Source: Runella sp. (GTDB lineage: Bacteria; Bacteroidota; Bacteroidia; Cytophagales; Spirosomataceae). From it: a stretch of 64,000 nt of DNA. The stretch lies in NCBI GenBank assembly GCA_044228585.1, contig JBGAUP010000001.1:5855-69854 (forward strand), in the 5' to 3' direction. The notes under the pieces are model-generated. The model saw nothing but the letters and a program-made list of their open reading frames with translations. It searched no databases and had not been told where the DNA came from. Positions 12,652 through 50,726 of this stretch are shown here, piece after piece. Both the position numbers and the translations under genes were made by a program. How positions within the stretch are numbered: the stretch's first letter is position 1; every line of letters starts with the position of its first letter.

Positions 12652-13608
12652 ATGCAGCCTACCAAATTATTAGTTGTTGTTCCTTGCTATAACGAAGAAG
12701 AAATTCTCGCCAAAACCCACTATACGCTACAAGCGTACCGTGGCCGCTTGGTGGCCGAAGGGGCGATTTCTCCCGAGAGTCGGCTGTGTTTTGTAAATGA
12801 CGGTAGTCGTGACCGAACTTGGCAATTGATTGACGAAATTTGCCAAAAAGACCCTTATAGTATCGGGGTGAAACTTTCCCGTAATTTTGGCCATCAAAGT
12901 GCTATTTTGGCAGGGCTGATGCATCATTCTGCCGATTTTGATTGTTTTGTAACCATAGATGCCGATTTGCAGGACGATGTAGAGGCCATTGGGCAGATGA
13001 TTGAGCAACATCGCCGTGGCGCCATGGTTGTGTATGGAGTGCGCGACGACCGCAGCAGTGATACTTGGTTTAAACGCACCACCGCCGAATCTTTCTATAA
13101 AATGATGCGTTGGATGGGCGTACCTGTGGTGTTTAATCATGCTGATTTTCGTTTAATGGATCGGCGTATTTTGGAAGAATTTGCCAACTTCAAAGAAGTA
13201 AATCTGTTTTTGCGGGGTATTATTCCCTTGATTGGCTTTCGTTCCGAAAAAGTTTTTTACAAACGTTTTGAGCGCGAAGCGGGTGAAACCAAATACCCAC
13301 TCCAAAAAATGCTGCTTTTTGCTTGGAACGGGGTTACTTCGTTCAGTACGTTTCCGATGCGCTTGGTTCTTTACTTCGGAGTTCTCAATTTTCTCATTGC
13401 CATTGTCATCGGGTTTTATATCGGCATTTCTTATTTGTTTGGTAGTACCGTAGCAGGTTGGACTTCGATTGTACTCCCTATGACGTTTTTTAGCGGAGCC
13501 AATATGATTGCTATTGGGTTGATTGGAGAATACGTTGGTAAGATTTATGAAGAAGTAAAGGGACGGCCAAGGTATATTATTGAATCAGTAGTGAGGAGTG
13601 AGGAGTGA
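12652..13608 (+). CDS. GT2 polyprenyl-phosphate glycosyltransferase (GtrB/ArnC/DPM1-like)
   Basis: VVVPCYNEE, VNDGSRDRT, SRNFGHQSA, IDADLQDD, plus two C-terminal TM helices. Confidence 0.85.
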   Translation: MQPTKLLVVVPCYNEEEILAKTHYTLQAYRGRLVAEGAISPESRLCFVNDGSRDRTWQLIDEICQKDPYSIGVKLSRNFGHQSAILAGLMHHSADFDCFVTIDADLQDDVEAIGQMIEQHRRGAMVVYGVRDDRSSDTWFKRTTAESFYKMMRWMGVPVVFNHADFRLMDRRILEEFANFKEVNLFLRGIIPLIGFRSEKVFYKRFEREAGETKYPLQKMLLFAWNGVTSFSTFPMRLVLYFGVLNFLIAIVIGFYIGISYLFGSTVAGWTSIVLPMTFFSGANMIAIGLIGEYVGKIYEEVKGRPRYIIESVVRSEE

Positions 13609-13614
13609 GAAAGG
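13587..13614. repeat. heptamer array, GTGANNA family (3-4 units)
   Basis: gtgagga gtgagga gtgagaa (13591-13611). It spans the last codons (VVRSEE) and the TGA stop (13606-13608) of the GT2 gene. Confidence 0.6.
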
Positions 13615-13656
13615 AGTTTATGACACGCAATTAACCATTCACGGATAACAGAAGCA

Positions 13657-15102
13657 TTGATGCTAAAAACCTTACAAAAACCTATATTTCAAGACCTATT
13701 CAACGTTGGATTGTTGGCCGTGGCGGTGGTGCCGTTGTTGATGTTATCGTTGTATAATCACCCTTCGCCTGTTGACGATTATTGCTACATAGATACCGTC
13801 TTTAAATACGGTTATTTTGAAGCCATGAATTATTATTATACGGGTTGGACGGGGCGTTATTTTGGTATTTGGCTCAATCACTCCAATCCGCTGATTGTAG
13901 AATGGGCTGGTGGGTTCAAACTACTTTCTTTTTTGCTAATTCTCGGAGTGGTAAGTAGTATGTATCTGCTAATCAGTGCGTTGTTTTCTAAGAGGAGTTC
14001 TCTCAGCGCTTTAGGGCTAACGGGCGCAATGCTTCTCCTGTTGGTTCTTAAAATCATGAGTGTGGTAGAGGCTTTTTATTGGATGGCGGCTTTTGTGACT
14101 TACACAGTACCGAATATTTTGACGCTTTACTGGTTAGTGGTTATGATTCGCTGGTATCAACTACCCAGTGGAATGTTTCAGAAATTAACGGCGATTTGGG
14201 CTGGTTTTTTGGTGTTTGCGGTGATTGGGTGCAGCGAAACCAATCTTACAATCATGGTTTTACTGGTTTTAGGTTGGTTTGGTTATCAATTGGTGATTCA
14301 TCGAAAATGGGATTGGTTTGCCGTATTTTTAATCGGAGTTGCCGTATTTTCCTGTTATATTTTCTTTTCTTCTCCTGGCAACGCACAACGTTTGGGAGGC
14401 AATCCAGAAGGACGAAATTTTACGCTTTCGACGTTTCAGTCTTTCAAAATGTTGCTAAAATTAGCCTTAGATTGGGTGTTTCTTACTCCTTTATTGGTAT
14501 TCACTATTTTATGGATTGCGGTACTGCCCAAAATCTTTGAAGCAGAAGGAAAGCAGAATCATTATTTTTCAGTGCCGCCTTGGGCAGCTGCGTTGGGCTA
14601 TTTGGGCGTGCTTTTTGTGCAGATTTTTCCCTCTTACTACGGAATTGGTATTGAGCCTGCGCCTCGTGTCATCAATTCGGTATATCTGTATTTCTTGCTT
14701 GGATGGTTTTATAACGTGGCTGTCTTGTTCAAATTTATATACGATAAAAATTGGCTTGGCGCCCAAAAATGGTATTTTCCACCTTCTATCAAGGCGGTAT
14801 TGGCTGCGCTTATCTTGGTGAGTGCCTTATTTAGTCCCAATTTAAGAATGGTTTATGGGGATTGGTTACGTGGACGTGCCGCCGCCTACGATGTAGAATT
14901 GAAAGAACGCTACGCTTACATCAAAAAAACACCTGGCGATACAGTGTATGTAGTTCCTTTGAAATCAAAACCACAATCTTTGTTTATGGACGATGCCAAC
15001 GCCGACCCCAAACATTGGTGGAGCAAGTGCATGGGGGGGTATTTTGGAAAAAAAGCGGTTGTTTTAAGAAGAGAAGAATCTACAGTAAACGTTAAACAGT
15101 AA
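13657..15102 (+). CDS. large polytopic membrane protein, putative GT-C-like glycosyltransferase
   Basis: About 11-12 hydrophobic helices. Acidic DD motif (NHPSPVDDY) in the first predicted loop after TM1. Position directly after a GtrB-like GT2. The family assignment is an inference. Confidence 0.5.
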   Translation: MMLKTLQKPIFQDLFNVGLLAVAVVPLLMLSLYNHPSPVDDYCYIDTVFKYGYFEAMNYYYTGWTGRYFGIWLNHSNPLIVEWAGGFKLLSFLLILGVVSSMYLLISALFSKRSSLSALGLTGAMLLLLVLKIMSVVEAFYWMAAFVTYTVPNILTLYWLVVMIRWYQLPSGMFQKLTAIWAGFLVFAVIGCSETNLTIMVLLVLGWFGYQLVIHRKWDWFAVFLIGVAVFSCYIFFSSPGNAQRLGGNPEGRNFTLSTFQSFKMLLKLALDWVFLTPLLVFTILWIAVLPKIFEAEGKQNHYFSVPPWAAALGYLGVLFVQIFPSYYGIGIEPAPRVINSVYLYFLLGWFYNVAVLFKFIYDKNWLGAQKWYFPPSIKAVLAALILVSALFSPNLRMVYGDWLRGRAAAYDVELKERYAYIKKTPGDTVYVVPLKSKPQSLFMDDANADPKHWWSKCMGGYFGKKAVVLRREESTVNVKQ

Positions 15103-15119
15103 ACCATCTGACGATACTA

Positions 15120-16838
15120 TTGAACTCATCAAGAAAATATATCATCTTCGCCTTTATTCTGCTTCCTATTGTTGTGTTTTATGGCTTTAGTATAGCTTAT
15201 AGCACCAATATTCCGTGGTTTGATGACATTGAAAATATTCCCTATTTTCTTTCCCGTCTGCTTGACGCCCCCACTTGGTACGAACGTGCCGAGGCATTTT
15301 TGCGCCCCAACAACGAGCACCGTGTTTTGAGCGCACGGCTCATTGTCTATTTCAATTATTTGTTGACCCACCAACTCAACTTTCGGGCATTGGCACTGAT
15401 CGGAAACCTAACGGTACTTGGTATTTTCTTGCTCCTAACAAGCGCTTATTTGAAAAATAGCGGACGGCTTCTTTATCTCATTCCTGCTGCATTTTTTATT
15501 TTCAACTTACAATTTTACAGCATGACGTTTATGACGATCATGTCGCTTCAGTATCAGTTGATTATCTGCGAGGTATTTTTGAGTCTGTATTTATTGGTTA
15601 AACCTTCCCGTTTTAGTTTTGGAGCAGCCATTTTGGTGGCAATCTTAGGTACATTCAGCATGGGAAATGGTTTGATGGTTTGGCCAACAGGGGCGCTTAT
15701 TCTACTCTATTTAGGACACTGGTCACGCTTAAGTACTTGGTTGATTATCGGCGTTTTATCCATTGTGGGGTATTTTTCGGGCTATGCTTTTGTGCAGGGC
15801 AACGACGAAGGATTTCTGTATTTCTTCCAGCATCCATTCAAAGTCATCATCGGTTTCTTTGCGTTTGTAGGCGGGATTTTGGATTGGTTTCCCCGAATTA
15901 CATTTGAAAAACGGATGCTTCTTCCTGTGTTGGGCGGACTGTTTATTGTTGTTTTTTTTCTGTTCTATACCCTCGGAATGGTCGGTATATCAGCACGTTG
16001 GCGTACTTTGGTTTCTCCCAAACTTACCAAATTTTACCTACGAATTCCTTATTTCAGAAACATAGAGCCGCGTTGGGGTGCATTTTGGGTAGGGTGTTTT
16101 GTGTATTTGTTGATTAACAGCGCATTGGTGGTGTTTTTTCGTACGCGCTTTGATTATCAATTGGTGCTTTGGGCCACCTACAAAATTTATCCAGGAACGC
16201 TCATGGCATTAACCGTCCTTTTAGTTTTGCAAATAATCGCTCCAGCACGACAAAAAGTGGGACTCATACTGTTTACTGGAGCCGCTTTACTTTCTTGGTT
16301 ATCTTCCTATTGGCATTTTATACCACAAGTACAACAAGACCGCAAACAACGATTGGCTTTTGCCTTCAATCAACAGCGCAACGACGTAGGATTAGGCGCT
16401 GAAAAGAATTCCAATTTTGCTCAATTTATTGTCGCCACCTTGGACAGTGCCGAGTCCAAAGGGTTTTACAAATTGCCTGCTCCTTTGCTTGACCCACAGG
16501 AAAAAGGGATTGAAAAAATATTGCGCGACAGTACATTGAAACTGCCGATAACAACCGTAAATGTGAATGACCAAACTAACACATTGGTAATCAGCAATGA
16601 AACGCTTGAGTACATCGAAGGAAAAGAAACTGGAGTGTTTATCACGTTGACCTCACCCCGTCATTTTTACATTTTTTCGGCAGCTCCTAATCAGGCATTT
16701 CACAATCCTCAAAAAGGATTTCAGATTTATTGTCCTAAAGGTGTTTTGTATAACGAAACCTATCAAATTGGGGTTTGGGTTGTGCAAAAAAGTGGTAATC
16801 AGATTTACAAAACCAGCCAAAACGTAAGATTACCGTGA
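15120..16838 (+). CDS. large polytopic membrane protein with C-terminal soluble domain, putative GT-C-like glycosyltransferase
   Basis: TTG start (no in-frame ATG nearby). DD motif (IPWFDDIE) after TM1. More than 10 helices, then an approximately 150-aa non-hydrophobic tail. Followed by a second GtrB-like GT2. Confidence 0.5.
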   Translation: MNSSRKYIIFAFILLPIVVFYGFSIAYSTNIPWFDDIENIPYFLSRLLDAPTWYERAEAFLRPNNEHRVLSARLIVYFNYLLTHQLNFRALALIGNLTVLGIFLLLTSAYLKNSGRLLYLIPAAFFIFNLQFYSMTFMTIMSLQYQLIICEVFLSLYLLVKPSRFSFGAAILVAILGTFSMGNGLMVWPTGALILLYLGHWSRLSTWLIIGVLSIVGYFSGYAFVQGNDEGFLYFFQHPFKVIIGFFAFVGGILDWFPRITFEKRMLLPVLGGLFIVVFFLFYTLGMVGISARWRTLVSPKLTKFYLRIPYFRNIEPRWGAFWVGCFVYLLINSALVVFFRTRFDYQLVLWATYKIYPGTLMALTVLLVLQIIAPARQKVGLILFTGAALLSWLSSYWHFIPQVQQDRKQRLAFAFNQQRNDVGLGAEKNSNFAQFIVATLDSAESKGFYKLPAPLLDPQEKGIEKILRDSTLKLPITTVNVNDQTNTLVISNETLEYIEGKETGVFITLTSPRHFYIFSAAPNQAFHNPQKGFQIYCPKGVLYNETYQIGVWVVQKSGNQIYKTSQNVRLP

Positions 16839-16872
16839 TTTTAGAGGTCTTTTTCCTAATTTTACCCTGAAT

Positions 16873-16907
16873 TTGTCACTCATTACTCATCACTTGTCAC
16901 TTGTCTT
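16873..16907. repeat. heptamer array, GTGANNA family on the opposite strand (5 units)
   Basis: ttgtcac tcattac tcatcac ttgtcac ttgtctt. The TTG start (16901) of the next GT2 lies in the last unit. Confidence 0.6.
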
Positions 16908-17887
16908 TACCTCAAATCTCCATAGTCGCGCCGCTTTATAACGAATCTGAGTCGTTTCCGCACTTAGTACAAAGGCTTACTCAACTCATGGATAGTCTTC
17001 AGTTGAGGATTGAAGTTGTATTGATTGATGACGGTAGCCGCGACAATACTGCCATACAGATGCGACAAATTGCGCTGACGGACACGCGTTATCATTGCGT
17101 ATTCTTGTCGCGCAATCACGGACACCAATTGGCTTTGACGGCAGGATTGGCCGCTGCCAGAGCCACCGAAGCGTTGTTCGTTATTGACGGCGATTTACAA
17201 GACCCGCCCGAATTGTTACCCGATTTCTATCAAAAAATGCAGGAAGGCTACGATGTGGTGTATGCTGTAAGGCGGAAGCGCAAGGAAAATTTCATCAAAA
17301 AAACGGGTTATTTCCTTTTTTATCGCTTGCTAAAATCTATTTCTTACGTAGATATTCCGCTTGATAGCGGTGATTTTGCCCTCATTAGCCGACGTGTGGC
17401 CGATGTATTGAATCAGATGCCCGAAGAAAGCCGCTTCCTCCGAGGAATGCGCTCGTGGGTGGGTTTTAAACAGACTGGTTTTGAATATGAGCGCAGCGAA
17501 CGCGTAGCTGGTGAGTCAAAATACTCCTTCAAACAACTATTTCGACTGGCCTACAACGGAATCTTTAATTTTAGTGAGTTTCCTATCAAATTCATGACAA
17601 GGGCTGGGGGAGTGGCGATTGGTATTGCGCTGGTATATTTCGTCATTGTTATTATCAAAAAACTGTTTTTTGCGGGAATCATTGAGGGTTTTACGGCTTT
17701 GTTGTTCGTTATTATCCTATTCAGTGGTGTACAACTCATGTCTTTGGGCATCATTGGCGAATACGTGTTACGCATCTTTTTTCAATCCAAGGGTCGCCCG
17801 TTGTATGTGGTAAAAGAGGAGATTGTGGAAGGTGCCTTGAAAGAACCGCAAAACAGAAAAACCGTAAAACAGAAAAAGGTAGATTGA
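16901..17887 (+). CDS. GT2 polyprenyl-phosphate glycosyltransferase (GtrB/ArnC-like), second copy
   Basis: ISIVAPLYNE, IDDGSRDNT, SRNHGHQLA, IDGDLQDPPE, and C-terminal TM helices. The start codon is TTG. Confidence 0.8.
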   Translation: MSLPQISIVAPLYNESESFPHLVQRLTQLMDSLQLRIEVVLIDDGSRDNTAIQMRQIALTDTRYHCVFLSRNHGHQLALTAGLAAARATEALFVIDGDLQDPPELLPDFYQKMQEGYDVVYAVRRKRKENFIKKTGYFLFYRLLKSISYVDIPLDSGDFALISRRVADVLNQMPEESRFLRGMRSWVGFKQTGFEYERSERVAGESKYSFKQLFRLAYNGIFNFSEFPIKFMTRAGGVAIGIALVYFVIVIIKKLFFAGIIEGFTALLFVIILFSGVQLMSLGIIGEYVLRIFFQSKGRPLYVVKEEIVEGALKEPQNRKTVKQKKVD

Positions 17888-17943
17888 TTTTACATTTCCT
17901 GCTAAGTCCGTACGCTTTTACATTTTACATTTTTCGGTTTTAA
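17888..17943. repeat. weak heptamer-phased array (TTTTACA units)
   Basis: ttttaca at 17888, 17916 and 17923 (offsets are multiples of 7). The units between them are degenerate. Immediately upstream, the 3-prime end of the CDS holds a 16-nt direct duplication ccg(c/t)aaaacagaaaaa. Confidence 0.35.
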
Positions 17944-17948
17944 AAACC

Positions 17949-20023: not shown

Positions 20024-20920
20024 TTACAATTGTCCCGCTAATATCGCAATTCCTTCGCTAAAACTATGTGGTTCATAACCTAAAATTGCGCGCGCCTTAT
20101 CCAAAACGAAACCTGTACGGGCAGGGCGTTTGGCAGGTTGGGAGAAATTGGAGGAATCAGCTTGGGTAATCAGGCTTTTGTCCAGCTTAAAATAGTCAGC
20201 TGTCATTATTGCCATTTCGTAGGGAGTCAGAAAATCCTTTCCCGAAATATTAAAAATGCCTTCGGCTTCCTTGTTGGCAATCAAGTAACAGCCCATCGCT
20301 AAGTCTTCTGCTAAAGTAGGAGTACGCCATTGGTCGGTGACCACTTTGATATTTTTACCTTCTTCCAACGATTTTTTGACCCACAAAATAATGTTTGACC
20401 GCGACATATCGTAGGCAATGCCATAAACCAACACTGTACGGGCAATGGCCCAACGAATATTGGAATGTTGCACCAGCTTTTCAGCGGCGTATTTACTCCA
20501 GCCGTAAAAGCTTAATGGATTGGCCTCGCCCGCTTCAGTATAAGGACCAGCAGCACCATCAAAGATAAAATCGGTAGAAACATGACAAAGAAAAATATCA
20601 TGTTTTCTACATTCGTCAATAAGATGCTGAACTGCGGTTACGTTCTGTGCCCAGCAAGCTTCTTTTTCAGACTCACATTGATCTACGTTGGTCATGGCTG
20701 CCCCGTGAATAATGGCATCGGGTTCTGTTTTTTCAATCACGGAGGCCACTTCGGTTCGATTGGTAATGTCCATTGGGAAATAATCGTACCCTTCTTTAAA
20801 AGGCAGACGATTTTCGCCACGTGCAGTAGCAATGATTTTAATATGGGGCTGTTGTAGGAGTAATTCTACCAATTTTTGTCCCAACAGGCCGTTGGAACCA
20901 GTAATAAGGATTGTTTTCAT
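20024..20920 (-). CDS. NAD(P)-dependent SDR, dTDP-4-dehydrorhamnose reductase-like (RmlD family)
   Basis: ORF 20024..20959; the likely start is ATG 20920 (MKTILITGSNGLLGQ). YGWSKYAAE catalytic Y-x3-K. About 298 aa. Confidence 0.8.
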   Translation of the reverse strand: MKTILITGSNGLLGQKLVELLLQQPHIKIIATARGENRLPFKEGYDYFPMDITNRTEVASVIEKTEPDAIIHGAAMTNVDQCESEKEACWAQNVTAVQHLIDECRKHDIFLCHVSTDFIFDGAAGPYTEAGEANPLSFYGWSKYAAEKLVQHSNIRWAIARTVLVYGIAYDMSRSNIILWVKKSLEEGKNIKVVTDQWRTPTLAEDLAMGCYLIANKEAEGIFNISGKDFLTPYEMAIMTADYFKLDKSLITQADSSNFSQPAKRPARTGFVLDKARAILGYEPHSFSEGIAILAGQL

Positions 20921-20936
20921 GGCTACAAATATATAA

Positions 20937-20999
20937 CCACGTAGGCACAAAGAACACATAGTTTCAAAAGTTTTCTACGTGGCCTTTGTGCCTATGTGG
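20937..20999. repeat. imperfect palindrome (REP-like hairpin or terminator)
   Basis: ccacgtaggcacaaag (20937-20952) versus ctttgtgcctatgtgg (20984-20999), 15 of 16 complementary. It lies between the OM beta-barrel gene stop and the rmlD-like start. Confidence 0.45.
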
Positions 21000-21024: not shown

Positions 21025-23871
21025 CTACCGGAAGTTCCGTAGTGTGTAGGTGAATGTCATCATATAGTATCGCTGCAAAACGCGGGTTTGGAGGTCTTCG
21101 ATGTAGGTTTCGGTCACAGTACGGCTGATACTATTATTTTGGCCTAATACGTCAAACGTGCTCAATTTTAGCTCTCCAGCTTTGTTTTTGAGGAACTTAT
21201 AACCAACCGCCGCATTCCAAAGAGTGAAGTTGAGGTTGAAATCTTGTCCTAAGCCCGTATAAAACGTGTGGTTGAGGTTGGTATTGACAAAGAATCCACT
21301 TTTGGTGACCCAATTGATTTTGAAGTTGCTGTTTTGAAAATAGTAGGTTCCGTCCAAAGCAGGTTGCAAGGTGTTTTTGACGGTGTTATAGTTCCCATTT
21401 AACGATAACGTAAAATCAACCTGCTCACTAATATTGCTACTCAAGACCAAACCACCAGTAATTGAATGGGTATTAGAGGTGTTTTGGACGTTGTTAATCA
21501 AACCAATCGTGCGGGTATAGCCCGTTCCTACATTGAAATTCAGATTGCTCTTGATGGCCGTAACGGGTAGTCCATACGTAATAAACGAGCGAACATTCCA
21601 GTTGCCATTCACGTTGACGGGCTGGCTAAACTGCGATCCTACTCTGAGTGGAAATCCCGCAACGATGGTGTCTTTGGTGGCGATAAACGTAGTATTGCTG
21701 ATGTTGTTTTGAGTAAACGAGCCATTCAGGTTGATAAAAAAGCTACGCGCTGTTTTGGCGTTGGTCACGCCGTAACGAATAAAAACACTTTGGTTGTACT
21801 CTTGTTTCAAGTTGGGGTTACCCGTCTTCAAAAACAGTGGATTGGAGTTGTCAACTACATTTTGCAGTTGGCTGATAGAAGGAGCATTAGTAGAAGTGCG
21901 GTAATTGATTCGTAAACTACTACCATCGGTACCTCGATACATTAACATAGCCGAAGGGAGGAGATTGTCGAAAGTGCGCTTGATTTCAAATTGGAGTGGG
22001 TAGTTTTGTTTTCCACTCAACTGTGCGTTCTGGTAATTTAGTTCTGCCGTTACCATTGTTTTTTTGATACGAAGGCGATAGCTACCTCCTACCCGGTTGG
22101 TGATGTAGGTATTATCAAACTCGTTGGAAAGGCGTAAATCAGGGGTGCTGTATTCGCTGGTGGACTGATTGTAGTTGTAAGTGTCTCGGTCAGAGTAGTT
22201 TTTGGTATAGGATGGCGTGTAATTCAACTGCAACTGACCAGTTCTTCCGATGTTCTCTGTGAATGAGATATTACTCGAAATTGTGTAGCCATTTGCTTTG
22301 GTATCGGTTTGTTGATCGGTTATTTGTAAAGAATCGGCAGTTTTACGGCCAAAATAGTTATTAATGGACTTTAATAGCGATTCACCTGTTCGGTTATTGG
22401 CCGAGGTGTTGAGCCCGACCGAGATAGTCCGTCCGATTTTTCCAAAACGATGTCGCCACAAGATGTTATTTCCCCAATTGTAACCATTGTTTTGCGATTC
22501 CCTATTGGTTTGGGTTCGGTTCAACAGGGACCATTCATAGGTTATTTGCTCCCAAAACAAACTGCTGTAAGCGGTATTGTCTTGAAAACTTAGTCGAGGT
22601 GTAATGATAATAGAGTTTTTGGTATTGATAGTGTATTCGAGGCGGGCGTTCAAACGGTGATTGTCGTTGTTGTTAGTAGAAGTAAAACCTTCATTATAAA
22701 GCTGTCCAGGGCCTTCGGTAGTGAAAAAAGTCCTTGCCAATGCGCTGGTATTTTCGTTTTTGGCGGCATTGAAAAAATAGCTACCGCTCACTTTCCATTT
22801 TTTGCCCCAATTGTCGGAATAATTGAGTCCAATGGCGTTGGTGCGGGTAATACCTCCTTGTTGGCCTGTCAAGAAGTTGCTGGCGTTGTTTCCCCCGCCG
22901 CCAAAATTTCCACCCCCACCTCCTTGGCCTCCGCCGCCACGATTACCTCCTTGGCCACCGCCACCACCACGAGTACCACCTTGACCCCCGCCGCCAGAAG
23001 ACCCCAATACGCCCAGCAAGTCTTCGTTTCCAAAGTTTTGCTGATTGATATTGTTGCTCATGCCAATGACCGAAATCCGTGTATCTTTCTTAAAATAGTT
23101 GGTACTTCCTCCTACCATGTAGCGATTGTCAGTACCATATCCCGCATATACTTTTCCAAATTGGCCATTGTTACGGTCAGAACGGGTGACGATGTTGATG
23201 GTTTTGGTCGTTTGTCCATCGTCGAAACCCGTAAACTGCGATTGGTCGCTGAGACGGTCAAAAACCTGAATTTTGTCAATCACTTCGGCGGGCATATTTC
23301 TTAGTGCCAGCGTGGCATCATCCCCGAAGAAATCACGGCCATCTACTGTTACTTTCTGAACATTTTCGCCTTGGGCTTTCACTTGACCGTTTTCAATGGT
23401 GATGTTGGGCATTTTTTCCAACAAATCTTGGGCATTGGCATCTTTATTCACCTTAAACGCGCTGGCGTTATAGACGGTGGTATCTCCCTTTTGCTCAACC
23501 CGCTCGGCTACTCCTTTTACTATCACATCTTTCAGCAATTGTGCGTCAGGCTTTAGTTGTATCTTTCCAAGGTCAGGATTTCCACGGCGGAGATTGATCC
23601 GCTGTTCGACAGATGTATAACCAATGAATGAGGTTATTAAGCGATAGCCTGCCACAGGAATATTTTTAAATATAAACGCACCAGACGTATCGGCTACCAC
23701 TCCAAAGCGTTTTATGGAGTCGGCACTGTTGATGAGAAGTACATTGGCTCCAATCAAGGCAGATTGGTCGTTGGCATCTACGACTCGACCTTTTACTTCC
23801 ACGTTTTGGGCAAATAGGAGGCCTGCCGATAGGAAGAAGAAGAATAGAAAATAGTAGCGTATGGGCTTCAT
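21025..23871 (-). CDS. outer-membrane beta-barrel protein (CarboxypepD_reg domain plus TonB-receptor-like barrel) with Gly-rich insert
   Basis: ORF 21025..23964; the likely start is ATG 23871 (MKPIRYYFLFFFFLSAGLLFAQ signal peptide). VKGRVVDANDQSALIGANV carboxypeptidase-regulatory-like domain. C-terminal aromatic residue (...LRNFR), long beta-strand-rich body. Gly-rich stretch GSSGGGGQGGTRGGGGGQGGNRGGGGQGGGGGNFGGGGNN. Confidence 0.8.
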   Translation of the reverse strand: MKPIRYYFLFFFFLSAGLLFAQNVEVKGRVVDANDQSALIGANVLLINSADSIKRFGVVADTSGAFIFKNIPVAGYRLITSFIGYTSVEQRINLRRGNPDLGKIQLKPDAQLLKDVIVKGVAERVEQKGDTTVYNASAFKVNKDANAQDLLEKMPNITIENGQVKAQGENVQKVTVDGRDFFGDDATLALRNMPAEVIDKIQVFDRLSDQSQFTGFDDGQTTKTINIVTRSDRNNGQFGKVYAGYGTDNRYMVGGSTNYFKKDTRISVIGMSNNINQQNFGNEDLLGVLGSSGGGGQGGTRGGGGGQGGNRGGGGQGGGGGNFGGGGNNASNFLTGQQGGITRTNAIGLNYSDNWGKKWKVSGSYFFNAAKNENTSALARTFFTTEGPGQLYNEGFTSTNNNDNHRLNARLEYTINTKNSIIITPRLSFQDNTAYSSLFWEQITYEWSLLNRTQTNRESQNNGYNWGNNILWRHRFGKIGRTISVGLNTSANNRTGESLLKSINNYFGRKTADSLQITDQQTDTKANGYTISSNISFTENIGRTGQLQLNYTPSYTKNYSDRDTYNYNQSTSEYSTPDLRLSNEFDNTYITNRVGGSYRLRIKKTMVTAELNYQNAQLSGKQNYPLQFEIKRTFDNLLPSAMLMYRGTDGSSLRINYRTSTNAPSISQLQNVVDNSNPLFLKTGNPNLKQEYNQSVFIRYGVTNAKTARSFFINLNGSFTQNNISNTTFIATKDTIVAGFPLRVGSQFSQPVNVNGNWNVRSFITYGLPVTAIKSNLNFNVGTGYTRTIGLINNVQNTSNTHSITGGLVLSSNISEQVDFTLSLNGNYNTVKNTLQPALDGTYYFQNSNFKINWVTKSGFFVNTNLNHTFYTGLGQDFNLNFTLWNAAVGYKFLKNKAGELKLSTFDVLGQNNSISRTVTETYIEDLQTRVLQRYYMMTFTYTLRNFR

Positions 23872-24059
23872 GGTGTATGGTTTTTCTCTATTTGAAAGAT
23901 AAAATAGCAAAAAGTTTAGCCTACTGATTTCAAAAAGCGATGAAATGGCATAGAACACCGACAATATACAGACTATTTACCGATAAAGATTACACTTAAA
24001 ATACAGGATTTGATTAGGTTTGGTTTTTCAAACACTTTTTATCAAAAATACTCCTATCT

Positions 24060-33023: not shown

Positions 33024-33103
33024 AGTCCACAGTCTTATAGGTATAGATAATATCTTGACTGTGGGCGGCAAACTGTGGGCTATGGACTGCCAACTTTTGA
33101 CTA
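33024..33103. repeat. heptamer array, NNGACTG family, with an inverted left arm
   Basis: agtccacagtc (33024-33034) is inverted relative to gactgtgggcg (33057-33067). Units ttgactg tgggcgg caaactg tgggcta tggactg ccaactt ttgacta (33055-33103). Located just after the apbC stop. Confidence 0.6.
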
Positions 33104-33145
33104 TAAACCCAAAAAAACGCATATTAGCGGATTAATTCATAAGAA

Positions 33146-38600: not shown

Positions 38601-38752
38601 AAAGGGCGGTCAGCGCACTGCGCTAAGGCTCGCTTAAAGAAATAACCAGCGCGTCGAGTAGGGAGAACAATACATAGTTTGTCAAGTGATTGAAGGTCTG
38701 GATATTTATCAAAAATATACCGTGCCGATTTTTCTAAGAATGACTCAAGCAT
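35603..38752 (-). CDS. PD-(D/E)XK nuclease family protein, AddB/RecB-exonuclease-like, with two repeat-encoded inserts
   Basis: 1049 aa. The C-terminal nuclease core has RVADYKTGK and a Cys cluster (...TACQYCDFREICGR). Two low-complexity segments are encoded by heptamer arrays. Confidence 0.75.
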   Translation of the reverse strand: MLESFLEKSARYIFDKYPDLQSLDKLCIVLPTRRAGYFFKRALAQCADRPFLAPEVVAIDDFVAQRCQVEISDNVSLLFELYDIFKKVDKNITFDRYLQWGTMLLRDIDQIDQYLIDPDYLFNYITEAKAIERWQIDWPKSRMTTDSERLKGYFELFANLREVYRLFREDLQSRHRAYRGMAYRTLAENAFELLLNSPQSAVDSRQSAIGNQQSAIGNQQSAEDTPPHSSPLTTHYYFIGFNALTLAEETIIKTLIKAKCAEILWDSDFYYMRENPLAEGGKSLRKYRDAAWSGEWKWTENHLLDTPKDIHVYAVPNASMQAKVAGELYRQWCDEGQGGTEKRPVGIVLADENLLVPMLNGLDEAITDLNVTMGLTLRNSLLFTLVDSLFELQFTMAEFRAKDGRNLKIPKFNHRTVQKVLNHPFIRRYEFLELQHRDSTASSIIQTTIREIQQRNLVYLDPKQLFEWGENHPLFKTLFTRWDDHPHSVIKVLYQLIDLLREVYKDTQNAIETEYLYLFYTLLKQLETTLSNEHIEKLNLRTFKAFLYELIRQTRIPFSGEPVSPLQIIGMLETRALDFERVIILSMNEGVFPSTKRQNSLIPWDIAREAGLPVYSDQNAVMSYHFYRLLQRAHEVHLVYVTDPNTYNGGEKSRFILQLEHELVPKSNGNIQFTEHVVMFQESQQSAVGSPQSTVSSQQSTVNSQLETVNSKPETVNAKPETLNQKHASISDWTVPKTPEILDFLRGILTKDGLYATHLNQYLKCSLQYYFSRVAGVAEDEEVEERMGAADFGSWIHKVLERIDIEYLMENKPISDEQVKVILREEFEKMFRGYDADSGINRLLYQVAEQTVVDFLQEQHKRNDGLVVLATEQKLTATVAVPLGNEVLMVKIAGKIDRVELLDNTIRVADYKTGKIEQLPKVTPEKLEGIMTSGNNSNHEKIRQLWLYQYLIYKQMLRERGLRLRGREFHLDNYEVTSGFYSLRNIKKGFVNNPLRFDENSDAESYVVNSEKYLQRFIVDTLLNPDEPFRKTDHLTACQYCDFREICGR
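36581..36707. repeat. heptamer tandem array inside the CDS: GTTTNNN x8 then NNGACTG x10
   Basis: gtttaga gtttcgg gtttggc gtttact gtttcgg gtttact atttaca gtttcga (36581-36636). Then ctgactg ttgactg ttgactg ttgactg ctaaccg tggactg tggactg ccaactg ccgactg ctgactc (36638-36707). On the coding strand, 36641-36665 reads CAGT(CAACAGT)3. Confidence 0.85.
38042..38169. repeat. heptamer tandem arrays inside the CDS: GTGANNA x5 then NNGAYTG-family x12
   Basis: aatagta gtgagta gtgaggg gtgagga gtgggga (38042-38076). Then ctgccga ttgctga ttgccga ttgccga ttgctga ttgccga ttgccga ctgccga ctgtcaa ctgccga ctgtgga ctgttaa (38086-38169, 84 nt). This includes a perfect 21-nt duplication at 38093-38134. Confidence 0.85.
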
Positions 38753-43578: not shown

Positions 43579-43597
43579 CATTTAAGCAATCAAAATC

Positions 43598-44065: not shown

Positions 44066-44083
44066 GTGGACATTCATTGCTCA

Positions 44084-44124: not shown

Positions 44125-44272
44125 CAGTTAGCCGACACAATACTCAAATTCGTCGTTAGTAAAATCAAATTTGCCCATTTTTTGTTAAATATGCCGTATA
44201 ATAAGAGAAGTTAAGAAGCTCGACTTTCGGCGGTAAGTTTCGATACGTACTCTTCAATACTATTTCACAATC

Positions 44273-45386
44273 ATGAATAAGTCTATAAAAACTATTTTAA
44301 CAGTCATTGTTATTTTATTGATTACGGGTTTGGCTTTTTATCCACGCTTGAAAGAATATATTGTTAAGAAAGAGGAAACAGGAGTAGCAAAAAATGCAGG
44401 TAAGGCAGGAGCAGGTGGTGCAGGAACACCGGGAGGTGGTGCAGCTCCGATTGAAATAATGGTAGTTACCAATCAACGTATGGAAGAAAAAATCCTCTCA
44501 ACAGGTACGATTATTGCCAATGAAGAGGTAGAAATACGCAGCGAAATAGCAGGACGGGTAACTTCTATTAATTTCAAAGAGGGGGATTATGTCAAAAAAG
44601 GAACAGTTTTGATTCGGATCAACGACGCTGATTTACAGGCTCAACTCCAAAAGCTAAAATACCAGAAAAAATTGGCCGAAGTAAACGAAGAGCGCCAAAA
44701 ACGCCTCCTCGAAAAAGAAGCCATTAGTCAGCGTGACTATGACATCAGTTTGACCAACTTGAACAGTATCAACGCCGACATTGAAAACCTCCAAGCCCAA
44801 ATCGCTAAGACAGTCATCAAAGCACCGTTTGACGGGTCAGTGGGCTTTGCGCTACATCAGCGAAGGGAGTTATACCAACAATGCCACGCGGATTGCTACT
44901 TTGACCAACGTGAACCCAGCCAAGATAGATTTTTCTGTACCTGCCAAATATGCCAACATCGTGCGGAAAGGAACCTCTATTACCTTCTCGACTGAAGGGG
45001 GGGACGAAAAATATTACGGTACAGTTTATGCCGTTGAGCCTAAAATTGACCCCAGTACGCGTACGCTTACACTCCGCGCAACAAGCCCGAACGGTAGTCG
45101 TAAACTCGTGCCAGGGTCGTTTGCACGGGTAGAGATTATACTGAGTGCCAAGGCCAATGCGATTGTAGTACCTACGGAGGCGGTGATTCCTAATTTACGC
45201 GGACACAGTGTGTTTGTGGTGCGTAACAACAAAGCCGAGTCTGTTTTGGTTGAAATTGGTACACGCAACGACAAAACAATCGAGATTATCAAAGGGTTAA
45301 GCGTAGGCGACACGCTCATTACGTCAGGAATATTACAAGTAAAACCTGGCGGAGAGGTAGATATTAAGGCTGCTGGTGGCCAGTAG
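44273..45386 (+). CDS. efflux RND periplasmic adaptor (MFP), interrupted by an apparent +1-nt frameshift at 44846-44848
   Basis: ORFs 44273-44995 and 44781-45386. Removing one T from the TTT at 44846-44848 joins ...IKAPFDGSVG to LRYISEGSYTNNATRIATL.... The product has a lipoyl/beta-barrel adaptor architecture. Confidence 0.8.
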
Positions 45387-45502
45387 TTTGGGTGTTTACA
45401 GTTCAAGGTTTGTGTTGAAAAAACTGTAAATCTAATAACTTAAAACCAAAAAACTCCTCAGAAAATCCCCCTTTGGGGGCAAGGGGGCTAAAATGAAAAA
45501 AA

Positions 45503-48500
45503 ATGGCTTCACTATCAACAACCAGCATTCAGCGACCCGTATTGGCAGTGGTAATGTCGCTGATTATCATCATTTTTGGTCTTATTGGGTTTTCTTATTT
45601 GGGTGTACGTGAGTATCCGAGTGTTGACCCACCCGTTATCAACGTCATGACTAACTATACGGGGGCCAATGCCGAAATCATCGAATCACAAATTACGGAA
45701 CCCTTGGAAGAGTCTATCAACGGGATTTCGGGAATAAAGACCCTCTCGTCGGCCAGTCGCGATGGTCGAAGTGTCATTACGGTTGAATTTGATTTAGGAG
45801 TAGATTTAGAAACCGCCGCTAACGACGTTCGCGACCGGGTTTCGCGTTCGTTGGGGCTATTGCCGCGCGATATTGACCCACCGATTGTCTCTAAAGCAGA
45901 TGCCGATTCCAACCCCATTTTCTTCATGAATGTAAAAAGTGGGCGCTCGTTACTCGAACTGACCGATATTGTAGAACGACAAGTAAAAGAGCGCTTGCAG
46001 ACGATTCCAGGGGTGAGTTCGATTCAAATATGGGGCGAGAAACGCTATGCAATGCGTATGTGGATTGACCCACTCAAATTGGCTTCGTATCGGCTTACGG
46101 CCATTGATGTTCTCAATGCACTTACGCGTCAAAACATTGAACTTCCTTCGGGGACCATCGAGGGGGCTACCACCGAACTTACCGTAAGAACGCTGGGGCG
46201 ATTGACTACTGCGGAAGAATTTAACAACTTGATCATCAAGGAAGAATCCGATCGCGTAGTGAAGTTTAAGGATGTAGGCCGCGCCGAATTAGCCCCTGAA
46301 AACGAACGTACACTGATGCGCCGTGATGGGGTTCCGATGGTGGGAGTGGCGGTAGTACCTCAGCCTGGAGCTAACCAGATTGCGATTGTGGACGAAGTGT
46401 ATAAGCGTTTTGAGCAAATCAAAAAAGACTTGCCCGCTGATATTACTCCCGCAATAGGTTTTGACTATACACGATCGGTACGCCGCTCCATTGAAGAAGT
46501 AGAAGAAACCATCATTACAGCCTTTATTTTGGTGGCATTGATTATCTTCATCTTTTTGCGCGACTGGCGCAGTACCATTATTCCGCTCACGGCGATTCCT
46601 GTATCGTTGGTAGGTACGTTTTTCTTAATGTACGTGATGGGCTTCTCTATCAACGTTTTAACACTCCTTGGGATTGTACTTTCGATTGGTTTGGTGGTGG
46701 ACGATGCCATTGTGGTATTAGAAAATATTTATACCAAAATTGAGGAAGGGATGGCACCCCGTAAAGCTGCGATTGAGGGGTCAAAAGAAATTTATTTTGC
46801 GATTATATCCACTACAGTTACGTTGGCGGCGGTGTTTTTGCCCATTATTTTCTTACAGGGGGTTACTGGGCGTCTGTTCCGCGAGTTTGGGATTGTGGTA
46901 GCGGGGTCGGTAATTATTTCAGCCTTTGTATCGCTGACACTTACTCCCATGCTCAGCTCTAAATTGTTGAAAACACGCCATAAACAGCCGTGGCTATACC
47001 GAGTGACAGAGCCCTTTTTTAAATGGCTCAACAACGCCTACGAGTCGTCTTTGGCAGGTTTTATGCAAGTACGCTGGTTGGCGTGGGTACTCATGGCAGG
47101 GTTTATCGGGATTATTTACGCGCTCTTTAAATACGATGCTATTCCTTCTGAATTGGCTCCGATGGAAGATCGCCGCGGTTTTAGGGTATCGCTGACGATG
47201 CAGGAAGGGGCTACGTTTGATTTCACCGACCGTTATTTGCAAGATTTTGCTAAGGTGGTGGTAGATGAAGTAAAAGTCAATGAACGCGATGCGCTTATCA
47301 CCATTACAGCCCCAGGCTTTTCGACCAACGCCACCAATACGGGTTTTGTGCGCGTGGTACTGAGTGAGCCAGAGATGCGTCAGCGTTCACAAATGCAAAT
47401 TGCGGATGCTGTGCAAGCAAAAGTAAAGAAAATCTCGGGTGCTAAATCGTTTGTGCTTCAAGACCCTACGATTCAAACAGGCCAACGAGGTGGTAGTAGC
47501 TTCCCCGTATCGTATGTAGTGCAAGCTACCAGTTATGAGAAATTGCGTTCAGTGATTCCAGAATTGATGAAGCGGGTCAACGAAAGCCCGATGTTTGTAG
47601 GTACTGACATCAACCTTAAATTTACTAAACCCGAAATTCGTCTCGAAATTGACCGTGATAAAGCTCAAAACTTAGGCGTTTCAATCCAAGACATTGCCCA
47701 AACGTTACAACTGGGGTTGTCAGGACGTCGTTTTGGCTATTTTTTAATGAACGGAAAACAATACCAAGTGATTGGCCAAATTGACCGACCCGACCGCAAT
47801 GACTTGATGGACTTAAAATCACTGTTTGTCAAAAGTAACCGTGGAGAGCTGATTCAGTTGGACAACTTTGTGAAACTAACCGAGCAAAGTTCACCCCCTC
47901 AATTGTTCCGTTTCAACCGCTCGTCGGCGGCTACAATTACGGCAGGATTGGCCAATGGAGTTACGCTGGGCAAAGCTTTGGAAGAAATGGACAGAATCGC
48001 CAAAGAAGTATTGGACGAAACTTATACCACGGCCTTAGACGGACAGTCGCGGGGTTGAAAGATAGTTCATCGAGCCTTCTTTTTGCGTTCGCCTTGGCTT
48101 TGGTTCTCATTTACTTAATTTTGGCCGCGCAGTTTGAGAGTTTTATGGATCCCGTTATTATCTTACTTACTGTGCCTTTGGCGGTGTGTGGGGCGTTGTT
48201 GTCGTTGTGGGATTTTAGCCAAACCCTCAACGTATTTAGCCAAATTGGTATCATTACCTTGGTGGGTCTTGTGACTAAAAACGGGATTTTGATTGTGGAG
48301 TTTGCCAATCAACGCAAAGAAACGGGGATTAGCAAGATGCAAGCGGTGAAAGAAGCCGCGGCGGCACGTTTCCGCCCTATTGTCATGACGAGTTTGTGTG
48401 CTATTTTGGGGATTTTGCCTATTGCCTTAGCCTTGGGAGCAGGTTCCGAAAGTCGCGTTTCAATGGGTATCTCGGTGGTAGGGGGGTTGTTATTTTCTAC

Positions 48501-48612
48501 CATTCTCACGCTTTATATCATTCCAGCTATTTATTCTTATTTGTCAGCCAATCATAAGCCCAATGCCGACACGAAAGCAGATATGCCCGAGCTGACAGAA
48601 CAAGATGCTTAA
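45503..48612 (+). CDS. efflux RND permease (AcrB/HAE1-like), interrupted by an apparent 1-nt deletion at 48051-48056
   Basis: ORFs 45503-48058 and 48055-48612. Adding one nt in the GGGG/TT run joins ...ALDGQSRG to LKDSSSSLLFAFALALVLIYLILAAQFESF. The typical RND motifs VVDDAIVVLENI and GILIVEFAN are present. Confidence 0.85.
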
Positions 48613-48647
48613 TGTCTTTTTAGTTTTCCATACCGTTTCATGATGTG

Positions 48648-48676
48648 GCCCCTGCTGAAAAGCGGGGGCTTTTTTA
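48648..48676 (+). terminator. rho-independent terminator after the RND pump
   Basis: gcccctgct GAAA agcgggggc (9-bp stem with one G-U pair and a GAAA tetraloop), followed by TTTTTTAT. Confidence 0.8.
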
Positions 48677-48804
48677 TATTACGTAAAGGCCATGAGGGGT
48701 GTGCTTACACAAAGCCACTGGGTAAAATATACAATTAGCAGTTGAGTAAAAGTTTTCAAGTATTTGATTGTGTCTTATCAATTTGATTATCAGGTACTTG
48801 AGGT

Positions 48805-48870
48805 CTTCCCTGTCGGCCGAGACGGCCAGGGTACGGTACGCCGTCGCGGGCCTGTGCGGTACCGTGAGGA
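48805..48870. other. GC-rich double-hairpin island in an AT-rich spacer (candidate small structured RNA or REP-like element)
   Basis: Hairpin 1: ccct-gtc-ggccg aga cggcc-aggg (48808-48831). Hairpin 2: acggtac ... gtaccgt (48833-48839 and 48859-48865). Neither side has a U-tract and there is no adjacent same-strand gene start. Confidence 0.25.
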
Positions 48871-48927
48871 TTTAGGTGGTGCTACTTAAAAGAAGAATTT
48901 GGGGAAGAACTTTTATAGTATCTCTAT

Positions 48928-49872: not shown

Positions 49873-49879
49873 CAGGTAT

Positions 49880-50491
49880 TTATAGGTCAATTTTGGGTAG
49901 CGATAAGCGGTACTTGACGGCAATTAGTCGGACAATAATAATCAATAATACGCATCCAAAGCTTATCCATTGGGTATGAATGTCGTAATAATCCAACAAT
50001 ACAAATACCACCGCGCCAGCCATGCAAGCCGTAGCGTAAATCTCTTTTTGAAAAATAAGCGGTAGTTCATTGATAAGCGTGTCTCGAATCACTCCCCCAA
50101 ACACTGCCGATACCATGCCCAGAATAATGGCCGCAAAGGGATTAACCCCGTTTTGAAGTGATTTTTGGACGCCAAGTATGGTATAAACCCCAATCCCAAC
50201 GGTATCCAACAAAAAAATGATTTTATGAAGGCGAAGAATCACCCGCTTAAACAAGACCGTAATGATGACTCCTAAAGTGATAAAAATGAGGTAATTCATG
50301 TCTTTTACCCACGCCAAAGGATAGACACCGAGGGTTACATCGCGGAGGGTTCCTCCCCCAATAGCCGTAATAAAGCCCGTAAAGAATACCCCAAATAGGT
50401 CTTGGTACATTTTTTTATCGGAAGCAGCCAAGGCTCCTGATATGGCAAAGACCAAAACGCCAATCATATCAATAGAATAAGGTAAGGACAT
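49880..50491 (-). CDS. trimeric intracellular cation channel-like membrane protein (UPF0126/YadS family)
   Basis: ORF 49880..50521, with the likely ATG at 50491. Two UPF0126 repeats (VFAISGALAA...GGGTLRD and VSAVFGGVIRD). Confidence 0.8.
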   Translation of the reverse strand: MSLPYSIDMIGVLVFAISGALAASDKKMYQDLFGVFFTGFITAIGGGTLRDVTLGVYPLAWVKDMNYLIFITLGVIITVLFKRVILRLHKIIFLLDTVGIGVYTILGVQKSLQNGVNPFAAIILGMVSAVFGGVIRDTLINELPLIFQKEIYATACMAGAVVFVLLDYYDIHTQWISFGCVLLIIIVRLIAVKYRLSLPKIDL

Positions 50492-50662
50492 ATTTTTTGG
50501 TAGAAATGTACTTAAATACAAAGTAACGAGAAAGGCGAATGAGAAACCAATTTTTACTTTTCATCAATTATTTTTTACTCTTCATGCAACCTTTCCCGTT
50601 GAATTGACATCTTATTCCTGAATTTAGCAGCATGAAAACAAAATCAGCAATCCAATAGTAGG

Positions 50663-50726
50663 CAGTTTGCAGTCGGCAGCAGGCAGTGAGTATTACTGTA
50701 AACTGTGGACTGCAGACTGACAACTT
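50663..50726. repeat. head-to-head heptamer arrays (CAGTNNN x4, spacer, NNNNACT(G) x4)
   Basis: cagtttg cagtcgg cagcagg cagtgag | tattact | then taaactg tggactg cagactg acaactt. Located in the divergent promoter region between the UPF0126 gene and the OM beta-barrel gene. Confidence 0.65.

Follow-up and report, generated by a model that had tools for sequence, protein, structure and literature searches.

When the same few short repeats turn up at unlinked places in one bacterial genome, have they been carried there, or were they made on the spot? The question is raised by a 64,000-nt stretch of Runella DNA (the window). A preliminary description, made from the sequence alone, had noted arrays of 7-nt units at five sites and in two blocks inside one gene, and had read them as a propagating or recombining family rather than the result of local slippage. 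We find nine such arrays in the 64 kb, about one per 7 kb. With modest confidence, we regard them as a lineage-specific heptanucleotide family, resembling the short tandemly repeated repetitive (STRR) sequences, that arises by local 7- and 21-nt duplication and by inverted duplication, is filtered by selection, and is mostly nonfunctional.

The source of the DNA is clear from the nuclease encoded at 35603-38752(-), which has 20 orthologues, all of them from Runella or Spirosomataceae, at 62-84% identity. The window therefore belongs to a Runella species (Spirosomataceae, Bacteroidota), in agreement with the Bacteroidota host proposed earlier. It was compared with loci of relatives, numbered L001 to L018. 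Every relative found in a metagenome scan with the window nuclease was at most 80% identical. An exact-protein look-up for NifU returned one 1.1-kb contig with the same sequence as the window (L014, an assembly from Logan SRR28480390). Since this independent public-run assembly is identical over the array at 33024-33104, that array is no assembly artifact.

Heptamer arrays and their units

Tandem Repeats Finder (TRF) reported period-7 arrays at or inside all five sites named earlier and in both intragenic blocks. Each of the five is 7-nt phased at the coordinates first given, and both blocks are phased and in frame within the nuclease open reading frame (ORF). TRF added two arrays, at 15082-15104 and at 25686-25740. 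At a threshold of at least 15 matches in 21, 145 window positions scored at lag 7, as opposed to 0 to 15 for lags 5, 6, and 8 to 11; at 18 or more in 21, the count was 52, compared with 0 to 2 for the other lags between 5 and 11. ACTG pairs spaced by 7 nt occurred 14 times (mean for neighboring lags, 0.5). Five ACTG/CAGT chains of at least three 7-nt-phased units were found, against an expectation of 0.04 and a maximum of one in 100 Markov shuffles. Averaged over the window, lag-7 identity is not raised (0.2534 versus 0.2538 for lag 8), because the arrays occupy less than 1% of it. Strictly defined segments number six at lag 7, no more than at lag 6, and total 281 nt versus 134 nt. The arrays and the gene that holds the intragenic blocks are as follows.

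13587 to 13614, plus strand: AGTGAGG, about 3.5 copies (TRF 13590-13609, 2.9 copies, 100% matches)
15082 to 15104, plus strand: weak ACAGTAA, about 3 copies, in CAGT orientation (TRF score 32; CAGT chain)
16873 to 16907, minus strand: five GTGANNA-type units, found by TRF; plus strand TTGTCAC TCATTAC TCATCAC TTGTCAC TTGTC
17888 to 17941, plus strand: weak TTTTACA, one copy at 17888 and 2.6 perfect copies at 17916-17933, in phase 28 nt downstream
25686 to 25740, plus strand: T-rich, CTTTNNC type; CCGTTTA CTTTTTA CCCTTTT CACTTTC ACCTTTA CCTTTAC CCTTTTC (TRF 25696-25738)
33024 to 33104, both orientations: inverted pair in the mrp-nifU spacer, CAGT arm at 33024-33034 (AGTCCACAGTC) and ACTG-phased arm
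35603 to 38752, minus strand: nuclease gene hosting the intragenic blocks, 1,049 residues, C-terminal PD-(D/E)XK domain, AddB-like (Pfam PF12705, E 2e-30)
36581 to 36706, plus strand, antisense to the coding strand: intragenic block 2, 18 in-phase units, 126 nt = 6 x 21
38043 to 38077, plus strand, antisense to the coding strand: intragenic block 1a, five AGTGAGG-type units (TRF 38047-38076)
38086 to 38165, plus strand: intragenic block 1b, 11 to 12 YTGYNRA units (TRF periods 7, 14, and 21)
50657 to 50726, both orientations: inverted pair, five CAGT-phased and four ACTG-phased units around a 3-nt center, the phased arms at 50663-50726 lying 7 nt apart; found as CAGT/ACTG chains

Two main cores, NNRACTG (equivalent to GAYTGNN) and RGTGAGN, recur, and most arrays belong to one of them. 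Units of the first include TTGACTG, TGGACTG, CCGACTG, CCAACTG, CCGATTG, and CTGATTG and lie at 33.0, 36.6, 38.1, and 50.7 kb and, reversed, at 15.1 kb. The second is found at 13.6, 16.9 (reverse), and 38.05 kb. A weaker T-rich group, made up of TTTTACA (17.9 kb) and CTTTNNC (25.7 kb), overlaps the ACTG family in part. When the units are aligned, the core is kept while two to three positions per unit vary. A repeat search of the whole window grouped the ACTG arrays as families D1 and D2, with similarity ending at the array borders.

The idea of a dispersed heptamer family sharing a few cores at unlinked loci is thus borne out by the ACTG co-occurrence, the chains, and the repeat families, with some corrections of detail. 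Part of what was listed as a third consensus, GTTTNNN, belongs to the ACTG family when the register is shifted; one base separates (GTTTACT)n from (TTGACTG)n. The arrays at 13587-13614 and 16873-16907, said to have the same consensus on opposite strands, agree at the level of GTGA..A and not unit for unit. The TTTTACA array, described as weak and placed at 17888-17943, is indeed weak.

Three arrays fall at gene boundaries of a surface-polysaccharide-type cluster at 12.6-19.4 kb (GT2, DUF6056, GT2, MBOAT). According to Pfam and the translation, a GT2 glycosyltransferase ORF, 12652-13608, has its last codons (..SVVRSEE) and its TGA stop in the array at 13587-13614. The DUF6056 ORF, 13657-15102, likewise ends within an array, that at 15082-15104, which provides its final residues (STVNVKQ) and its TAA stop. 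ORF 15120-16838 is followed by a spacer that the array at 16873-16907 fills; the last unit of this array includes the TTG start (16901) of a second GT2 ORF, which from this codon translates as MSLPQISIVAPLYNE and matches the Pfam GT2 profile from residue 7. The TTTTACA array lies between the end of this gene (17887) and the ATG of the MBOAT gene (17949), stopping 8 nt short of it. Just upstream, at the 3' end of the GT2 ORF, is a 16-nt tandem repeat (GAAAAACCGCAAAACA x 2.4, 17839-17877).

The T-rich array at 25686-25740 encodes the hydrophobic core (LFTLFTFTFTFTLFT; 25663-25760, MKKSLSLPRLLFTLFTFTFTFTLFTSSTLSAQ) of the predicted signal peptide of an M24-peptidase-like ORF, 25663-27042. At 33024-33104, between mrp/apbC and a NifU-like gene (Pfam), the CAGT arm directly follows the mrp stop. 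The other arm reads TTGACTG TGGGCGG CAAACTG TGGGCTA TGGACTG CCAACTT TTGACTA, with ACTG in phase at 33058, 33072, and 33086. The pair at 50657-50726 separates divergent genes, 49880-50521(-) and 50843-53287(+), assigned by Pfam to a glycine-transporter family and to outer-membrane beta-barrels, respectively. Within the nuclease, block 36581-36706 consists of eight GTTTNNN and ten GNNGACT units (TTGACTG family) and encodes ..SQQSAVGSPQSTVSSQQSTVNSQLETVNSKPETVNAKPETLNQ.. in variable linker 2. Blocks 38043-38077 and 38086-38165 encode PPHSSPLTTH and SAVDSRQSAIGNQQSAIGNQQSA, respectively, in variable linker 1. The units of 38086-38165 (CTGCCGA, TTGCTGA, and TTGCCGA) are GAYTGNN in another register and form 21-nt higher-order repeats.

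Duplication, placement, and turnover of the arrays

In the intragenic arrays, a unit resembles its neighbors, and the units 21 nt away from it, more closely than it does when the order is permuted. Units three apart differ at 1.11 positions versus 1.79 permuted in block 38086-38165 (P = 0.02) and at 1.93 versus 2.98 in block 36581-36706 (P = 0.002), the latter value owing partly to two sub-blocks. Such likeness is the pattern expected of local 7-nt duplication when only net 21-nt changes survive in frame, and the linker inserts among the nuclease orthologues are all multiples of 3. Local duplication is thus evident, and to that extent the earlier preference for propagation over local slippage is not supported. 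What stands is that slippage from random seeds does not suffice, given the recurrent cores and the way in which arrays fill sites that are short and array-free in relatives.

The placement of the arrays speaks for selection on orientation. AGTGAGG and TTGACTG contain TGA in one frame, so that translation invariably ends within a forward array with at least three units. These TGA-containing orientations are found only at gene ends or between genes, and the nuclease linkers carry the stop-free reverse orientation. The arrays are placed where they do little harm: at gene ends, in spacers, in a signal peptide, and in two hypervariable linkers. GC skew is mostly positive across the window, and nine arrays are too few for a test of orientation relative to replication.

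Relatives show how the sites differ in length. Both nuclease linkers are hypervariable and rich in indels, and linker 2 is absent or short in most orthologues. Linker 1 measures 27 nt in R. limosa and R. defluvii (L002 and L010), as against 120 nt in the window; in other relatives, its length is 78 nt (L003), 81 nt (L001), 105 nt (L012), 153 nt (L016), or 180 nt (L011). Its longer forms consist of heptamers (CAGTCGG, CCTCACT type, and AAGACTC). The mrp-nifU spacer is 128 nt long in the window and 48-74 nt, with no array, in the four species of L002, L004, L010, and L012. In L011 it reaches 160 nt; the units differ and the layout is the same, with a CAGT-phased arm after the stop and then an ACTG-phased arm. 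L001 holds an AGTGAG/CTCAC inverted pair where the matching spacer of the window is repeat-poor.

Small palindromes of two kinds accompany the heptamers of the relatives. A 24-nt palindrome, CCGCAGACCGGTAYGCCGRTGCGG (..SADRYA..), lies within CAGTC arrays at L011:954-977, L001:11910-11933, and L018:12048-12071 and is absent from the window. It is similar to the small dispersed repeats that Elhai reportedly described in 2008 as nested in Nostoc heptamer arrays. The second kind, in linker 1 of the nuclease at L016:237-3452, is a perfect 15-bp inverted repeat, CCCGTCGGTCGGTTT...AAACCGACCGACGGG, which stands in frame between CAGTCGG and CAAGACC arrays.

Period-7 density amounts to 43-144 nt per 10 kb in the clade of the window (window, L011, L001/L018, and L003), to 9-38 nt in the limosa/defluvii sister clade, and to 0 in seven loci of the aurantiaca/salmonicolor/zeae clade. 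In an outlying clade, it is 64 nt in L012 and 417 nt in L016, a contig of only 3.9 kb. Other lags gave 0-15 nt per 10 kb over all loci, mostly 7-15. On a neighbor-joining tree of the conserved C-terminal 317 residues of the nuclease, the two array-rich clades stand apart, which implies at least two gains or at least two losses of the trait. That the same cores occur in two separate Spirosomataceae clades, with intervening clades devoid of arrays, argues for a lineage-specific bias in generating or retaining them.

At present, the arrays change slowly. L001 and L018, which are 99.57% identical over 23 kb, have the same copy number in six arrays, and all of their indels of at least 3 nt lie outside arrays. 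Current slippage is therefore slow, and the arrays are not hypermutable. An indel near L001:13947 measures 14 nt (ATGACCACCAAATC), or 2 x 7, and lies outside any recognizable array; the only other sizeable indel is 6 nt long.

The two intergenic inverted pairs, 33024-33104 and 50657-50726, can form hairpins whose arms match not at the cores alone but at the variable positions too. The first has a 10-bp stem and a predicted RNA fold of -27.5 kcal/mol (z = -2.1), and its L011 counterpart reaches -36.4 kcal/mol (z = -3.1). The second forms a hairpin of about 24 bp (-36.7 kcal/mol, z = -5.2) and is more stable than core-preserving nulls in which the order of units (P = 0.03) or the variable positions (P = 0.01) were shuffled. 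Its arms are thus related by inverted copying or selected to pair, and a chance juxtaposition of two arrays does not account for them. Arrays that run in a single direction (AGTGAGG, GTGANNA, and TTTTACA) fold no better than shuffles. A reading of the arrays as terminators was rejected: a consensus scan of 13-19 kb placed no site on the arrays at 13587-13614, 16873-16907, and 17888-17941, and no T-tract follows either hairpin. Rfam 15, at gathering score, gave no matches in the whole window.

Repetitive extragenic palindromes (REP) and bacterial interspersed mosaic elements (BIME) are intergenic imperfect palindromes of enterobacteria and pseudomonads. The two Runella inverted pairs resemble them in being intergenic, in one case directly after a stop, variable between relatives, and capable of forming hairpins. 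They differ in that their consensus is only a 4-5-nt core and their arms are 7-nt periodic, and most Runella arrays are not palindromic. No conserved palindrome of 20-40 nt recurs across many spacers; the two pairs share the ACTG/CAGT core and some units. No REP-associated tyrosine transposase (RAYT) of the IS200/IS605 Y1 type was found among the Pfam-scanned ORFs of the window.

We propose that short seeds with a favored core (ACTG/GAYTG, GTGAG, or TTTAC) would be duplicated locally in 7-nt steps, by replication slippage or unequal exchange; slippage is the presumed enzymatic cause. Within ORFs, only net 21-nt changes would survive. Some arrays would be copied in inverted orientation, perhaps by strand or template switching, to give hairpin-forming pairs. 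Purifying selection sets where arrays persist and in which orientation. Most would be passengers; a few probably now serve as a stop or start codon, as the core of a signal peptide, as linker peptides, or as hairpins in spacers, with possible secondary effects on expression.

Several observations sit uneasily with this proposal. If slippage started from arbitrary seeds, identical cores would not be expected at unlinked loci, and the persistence of the core in units that are heterogeneous at two to three positions could mean that the core is constrained. The CAGTCGG unit is common to the two array-rich clades, which array-free clades separate. The 24-nt palindrome is identical in linker 1 of L011 and in linker 2 of L001/L018, a hint of copying between sites. 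The inverted layout after the mrp stop has been kept in the window and L011 despite sequence turnover and could mean selection for the hairpin. The unchanged copy numbers of L001 and L018 count against ready slippage, and the comparison spans about 0.4 Mb of Spirosomataceae sequence rather than whole genomes.

Known heptamer repeats and competing explanations

Cyanobacterial STRR sequences are used for STRR-PCR fingerprinting of Nostocales. The units that Mazel et al. reportedly described in Calothrix PCC 7601 in 1990 are CCCCAGT (STRR1), TTGGTCA (STRR2), and CAACAGT (STRR3). We take the triple ACTGTTG at 36641-36661 to be the reverse complement of STRR3 (TT-GACTG in our register) and ACTGTGG to be one base away from STRR1 (CCCCAGT, or ACTGGGG); presumably, no unit of the window arrays is STRR2-like. 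We know of no STRR counterpart of the AGTGAGG family. Like STRR sequences, the Runella arrays are tandem heptanucleotides of a few dispersed unit families and include composite arrays, but they are shorter (3-18 units) and more heterogeneous, and their host is no heterocystous cyanobacterium. Rehm et al. (2015, PMC4692102) mention three heptanucleotide families in Calothrix and CCCCAGT/GGGGACT oligonucleotides and cite the slippage hypothesis of Mrazek. The earlier statement that the Runella units are sequence-identical to cyanobacterial ones is half right: the GAYTG core matches Nostoc GGGGA(C/T)T in another register (PMC4692102), but most other units differ at one to three positions.

Degenerate heptamers are also known from Xanthomonas, as (GGGANTN)n or GGGAATC, and from Nostoc PCC 7120, as GGGGA(C/T)T (Rehm et al. 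2015, PMC4692102). They are mostly intergenic, include some inverted pairs capable of forming stem-loops, and differ in sequence and in length at the same sites of related species (PMC4692102). The Runella arrays likewise combine a conserved core and two to three free positions with inverted pairs and interspecies variation. Nostoc GGGGACT can be written GG-GACTG and GGGGATT GG-GATTG, which have the GAYTG core and the C/T alternation of block 38086-38165 (PMC4692102). The Runella units belong to another phylum and, unlike these, are not rich in G-tracts; for that reason, G-quadruplexes are not expected in them.

Nor are heptamer arrays new to Bacteroidota, as the preliminary description had implied. 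Direct-repeat arrays of TAACTGA have been published for Beggiatoaceae, 15 cyanobacteria, and five Bacteroidetes, with horizontal transfer argued and no mechanism offered (MacGregor 2015, PMC4679880); Runella is not among the Bacteroidetes named there. These repeats are mostly intergenic, and other heptamers are mixed in. In the orientation that contains stops they overlap ORF ends, in the reverse one they are tolerated in peripheral parts of proteins, and close relatives have shorter, repeat-free spacers (PMC4679880). The Runella arrays follow the same rules of orientation, position, and repeat-free relatives, with linkers in the place of the protein periphery. They differ in having no strong bias toward the few nucleotides upstream of starts.

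In the NNRACTG register, TAACTGA reads AT-AACTG. No tandem TAACTGA is present in the window, where the best match has two mismatches (chance level); among the loci examined, only L003 has one. There, at L003:4841-4920 of a Spirosomataceae metagenome-assembled genome, a TAACTGA-type inverted pair consists of (GTTATNN) x 4, a 27-nt center, and (GATAACT) x 2-3 (4899-4920). An ACTG/GAYTG core common to three phyla is real at the level of sequence, and it comprises only 4-5 bases, with C/T alternation being the commonest kind of mutation.

As summarized in later papers, Mrazek, Guo, and Shah (2007) reportedly described long simple sequence repeats (SSRs) with units of 5-11 nt, of which heptanucleotides are the commonest class in many genomes and sporadic in distribution; slippage over the 7-nt footprint of the polymerase was proposed. 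The window arrays are head-to-tail 7-nt repeats beyond chance expectation, and their distribution is sporadic and lineage-specific, as that class would have it. By these summaries, however, the survey takes each array as a case of local slippage, and recurrent cores and inverted pairs are not addressed. A partial parallel is offered by the tandem repeats of Borg elements, which reportedly create disordered protein segments (Schoelmerich et al. 2023, PMC9879509). In Runella, too, in-frame repeats give rise to fast-evolving, low-complexity linkers rich in Q, S, T, N, and P within an otherwise conserved protein. The Runella unit differs in being 7 nt long; it yields a 7-residue protein period only by way of 21-nt triplets, and it also occurs outside genes.

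The arrays might instead be cis-elements, that is, multimeric DNA or RNA sites for a protein that reads the 7-nt register, with the hairpin pairs acting as REP-like stabilizers or terminators. We consider this rather unlikely overall. It would account for a core that is conserved while two to three positions vary, for arrays that adjoin starts (16873-16907, which holds a TTG, and 17916-17941, which ends 8 nt before an ATG) or directly follow stops, for the layout kept in the mrp-nifU spacers of the window and L011, and for the pairing of 50657-50726 beyond core-preserving nulls. S1-, Csp-, or CsrA-like post-transcriptional regulators, along with translational regulation, have been proposed for TAACTGA (MacGregor 2015, PMC4679880). 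A preprint reports modest effects on a reporter when the heptamers upstream of Nostoc recO were deleted, the regulated activity of the promoter being altered. Neither position nor orientation relative to genes is consistent, however: some arrays lie at the 3' end of a gene and others at the 5' end, one site stands in a divergent spacer 117-140 nt away from the two starts, and further arrays fall within coding sequence, where copies are hard to read as regulatory sites. Orthologous genes of close relatives do entirely without arrays, the neighboring genes are functionally unrelated, and the hairpins lack a T-tract.

A second possibility, which we judge improbable, is that an active, sequence-specific process, whether a tiny mobile element or an enzyme, inserts or copies ACTG-core blocks and has perhaps been exchanged among cyanobacteria, Beggiatoaceae, and Cytophagales. 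Cores that recur at unlinked sites, insertions of 60-150 nt relative to relatives, a patchy phylogeny with CAGTCGG in two separated clades, and the recurrence of CCGCAGACCGGTAYGCCGRTGCGG in different linkers all point in this direction. So does the ACTG core of TAACTGA, for which horizontal transfer has been argued (MacGregor 2015, PMC4679880), along with the GAYTG core of Nostoc GGGGA(C/T)T (PMC4692102). As a mobile element, however, the propagating family of the preliminary description finds no support in the window: there are no conserved termini or terminal inverted repeats, no target duplications, and no shared flanks. A miniature inverted-repeat transposable element was rejected as a candidate, since families D1 and D2 align within the arrays only. 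Pfam scans of 43 window ORFs (the last five, 59225-63863, being left out) revealed no transposase, reverse-transcriptase, or Xis domains and nothing RAYT-like. The signatures of local duplication and the sameness of arrays between 99.6% identical strains speak against such a process as well. Viral contigs give no sign of a phage vehicle: GACTG x 4 with period 7 matched 81 stretches, fewer than the controls with period 8 (108) or period 6 (at least 119). GTGAGGA x 3.7 occurs in 13 stretches.

We give still less credence to a more specific form of this idea, in which a dedicated activity would read the ACTG/GAYTG core, lay down or copy 7-nt units, sometimes bidirectionally to give hairpins, and carry palindromic modules between arrays, having moved among some Spirosomataceae, filamentous cyanobacteria, and Beggiatoaceae. 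The best lead for such a generator is the 24-nt palindrome nested in the arrays of L011 and L001.

That the arrays are contingency loci, whose changes in copy number switch neighboring genes such as those of the glycosyltransferase cluster, seems very unlikely. Three arrays do lie at gene boundaries of that cluster, and heptamer repeats are reported, in a paper on HMW1A, to drive phase variation in some pathogens. The arrays are short (3-5 units) and imperfect, though, which lowers the rate of slippage, and the intragenic blocks are in frame, in linkers, and not in the 5' coding regions where a frameshift would switch a gene. A phase-variable SSR was rejected on the heterogeneity of the tracts and on the lack of copy-number polymorphism between L001 and L018, which share six arrays of equal copy number despite 0.43% divergence.

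Finally, chance, composition, or a by-product of protein-coding repeats, to which the flat window-wide identity, the equal strict-segment counts at lags 7 and 6, and the weak site at 17888-17943 might be thought to point, can be dismissed with near certainty on the stringent lag-7 counts (52 versus 0-2), the ACTG lag-7 co-occurrence, and the chains (5 versus 0.04 expected), all the more so as five arrays are intergenic and codon structure cannot yield a period of 7, which is no multiple of 3.

Other repeats in the window and significance

Three further features of the window deserve mention. An in-frame, Gly-rich protein repeat with no relation to the heptamers (27-30 nt, 2.8 copies, ACCTCCTTGGCCACCGCCGCCAC.., 22918-22996) lies in an outer-membrane beta-barrel ORF of 979 residues, 21025-23964(-). 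A 25-nt inverted repeat (84% complementary, 13-nt loop, 20937-20999) is found directly upstream of an RmlD-like gene, 20024-20959(-), and overlaps its start. A resistance-nodulation-division efflux operon appears to be interrupted: two overlapping ORFs, 44273-44995 and 44781-45386, make up its membrane-fusion protein, and its AcrB-like pump is divided between 45503-48058 (profile positions 2-854) and 48055-48612 (859-1019). These splits (44273-45386 and 45503-48612) may be frameshifts, pseudogenes, or sequencing errors, and their junctions have no heptamer array.

Heptamer repeat families have been known since 1990, from STRR sequences onward, and the Runella arrays are a lineage-specific example of the heptamer repeats known from cyanobacteria, Beggiatoaceae, Xanthomonas, and a few Bacteroidetes. 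They show how a non-triplet repeat is filtered into proteins, by way of 21-nt steps and a stop-free orientation. The same heptamers also contribute stop codons and a start codon, as well as the core of a signal peptide.

A common mechanism behind the ACTG/GAYTG core of the three phyla would point to a DNA transaction not yet known; failing that, the arrays are an ordinary mutational by-product. Were a dedicated activity responsible, they would be the traces of a class of micro-mobile or templated-insertion systems not described so far. Runella offers a comparative system in which these questions can be approached, with array-rich and array-free species whose orthologous spacers and linkers can be aligned. 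Gains can therefore be dated, and phylogenetic profiling for a responsible gene becomes possible.

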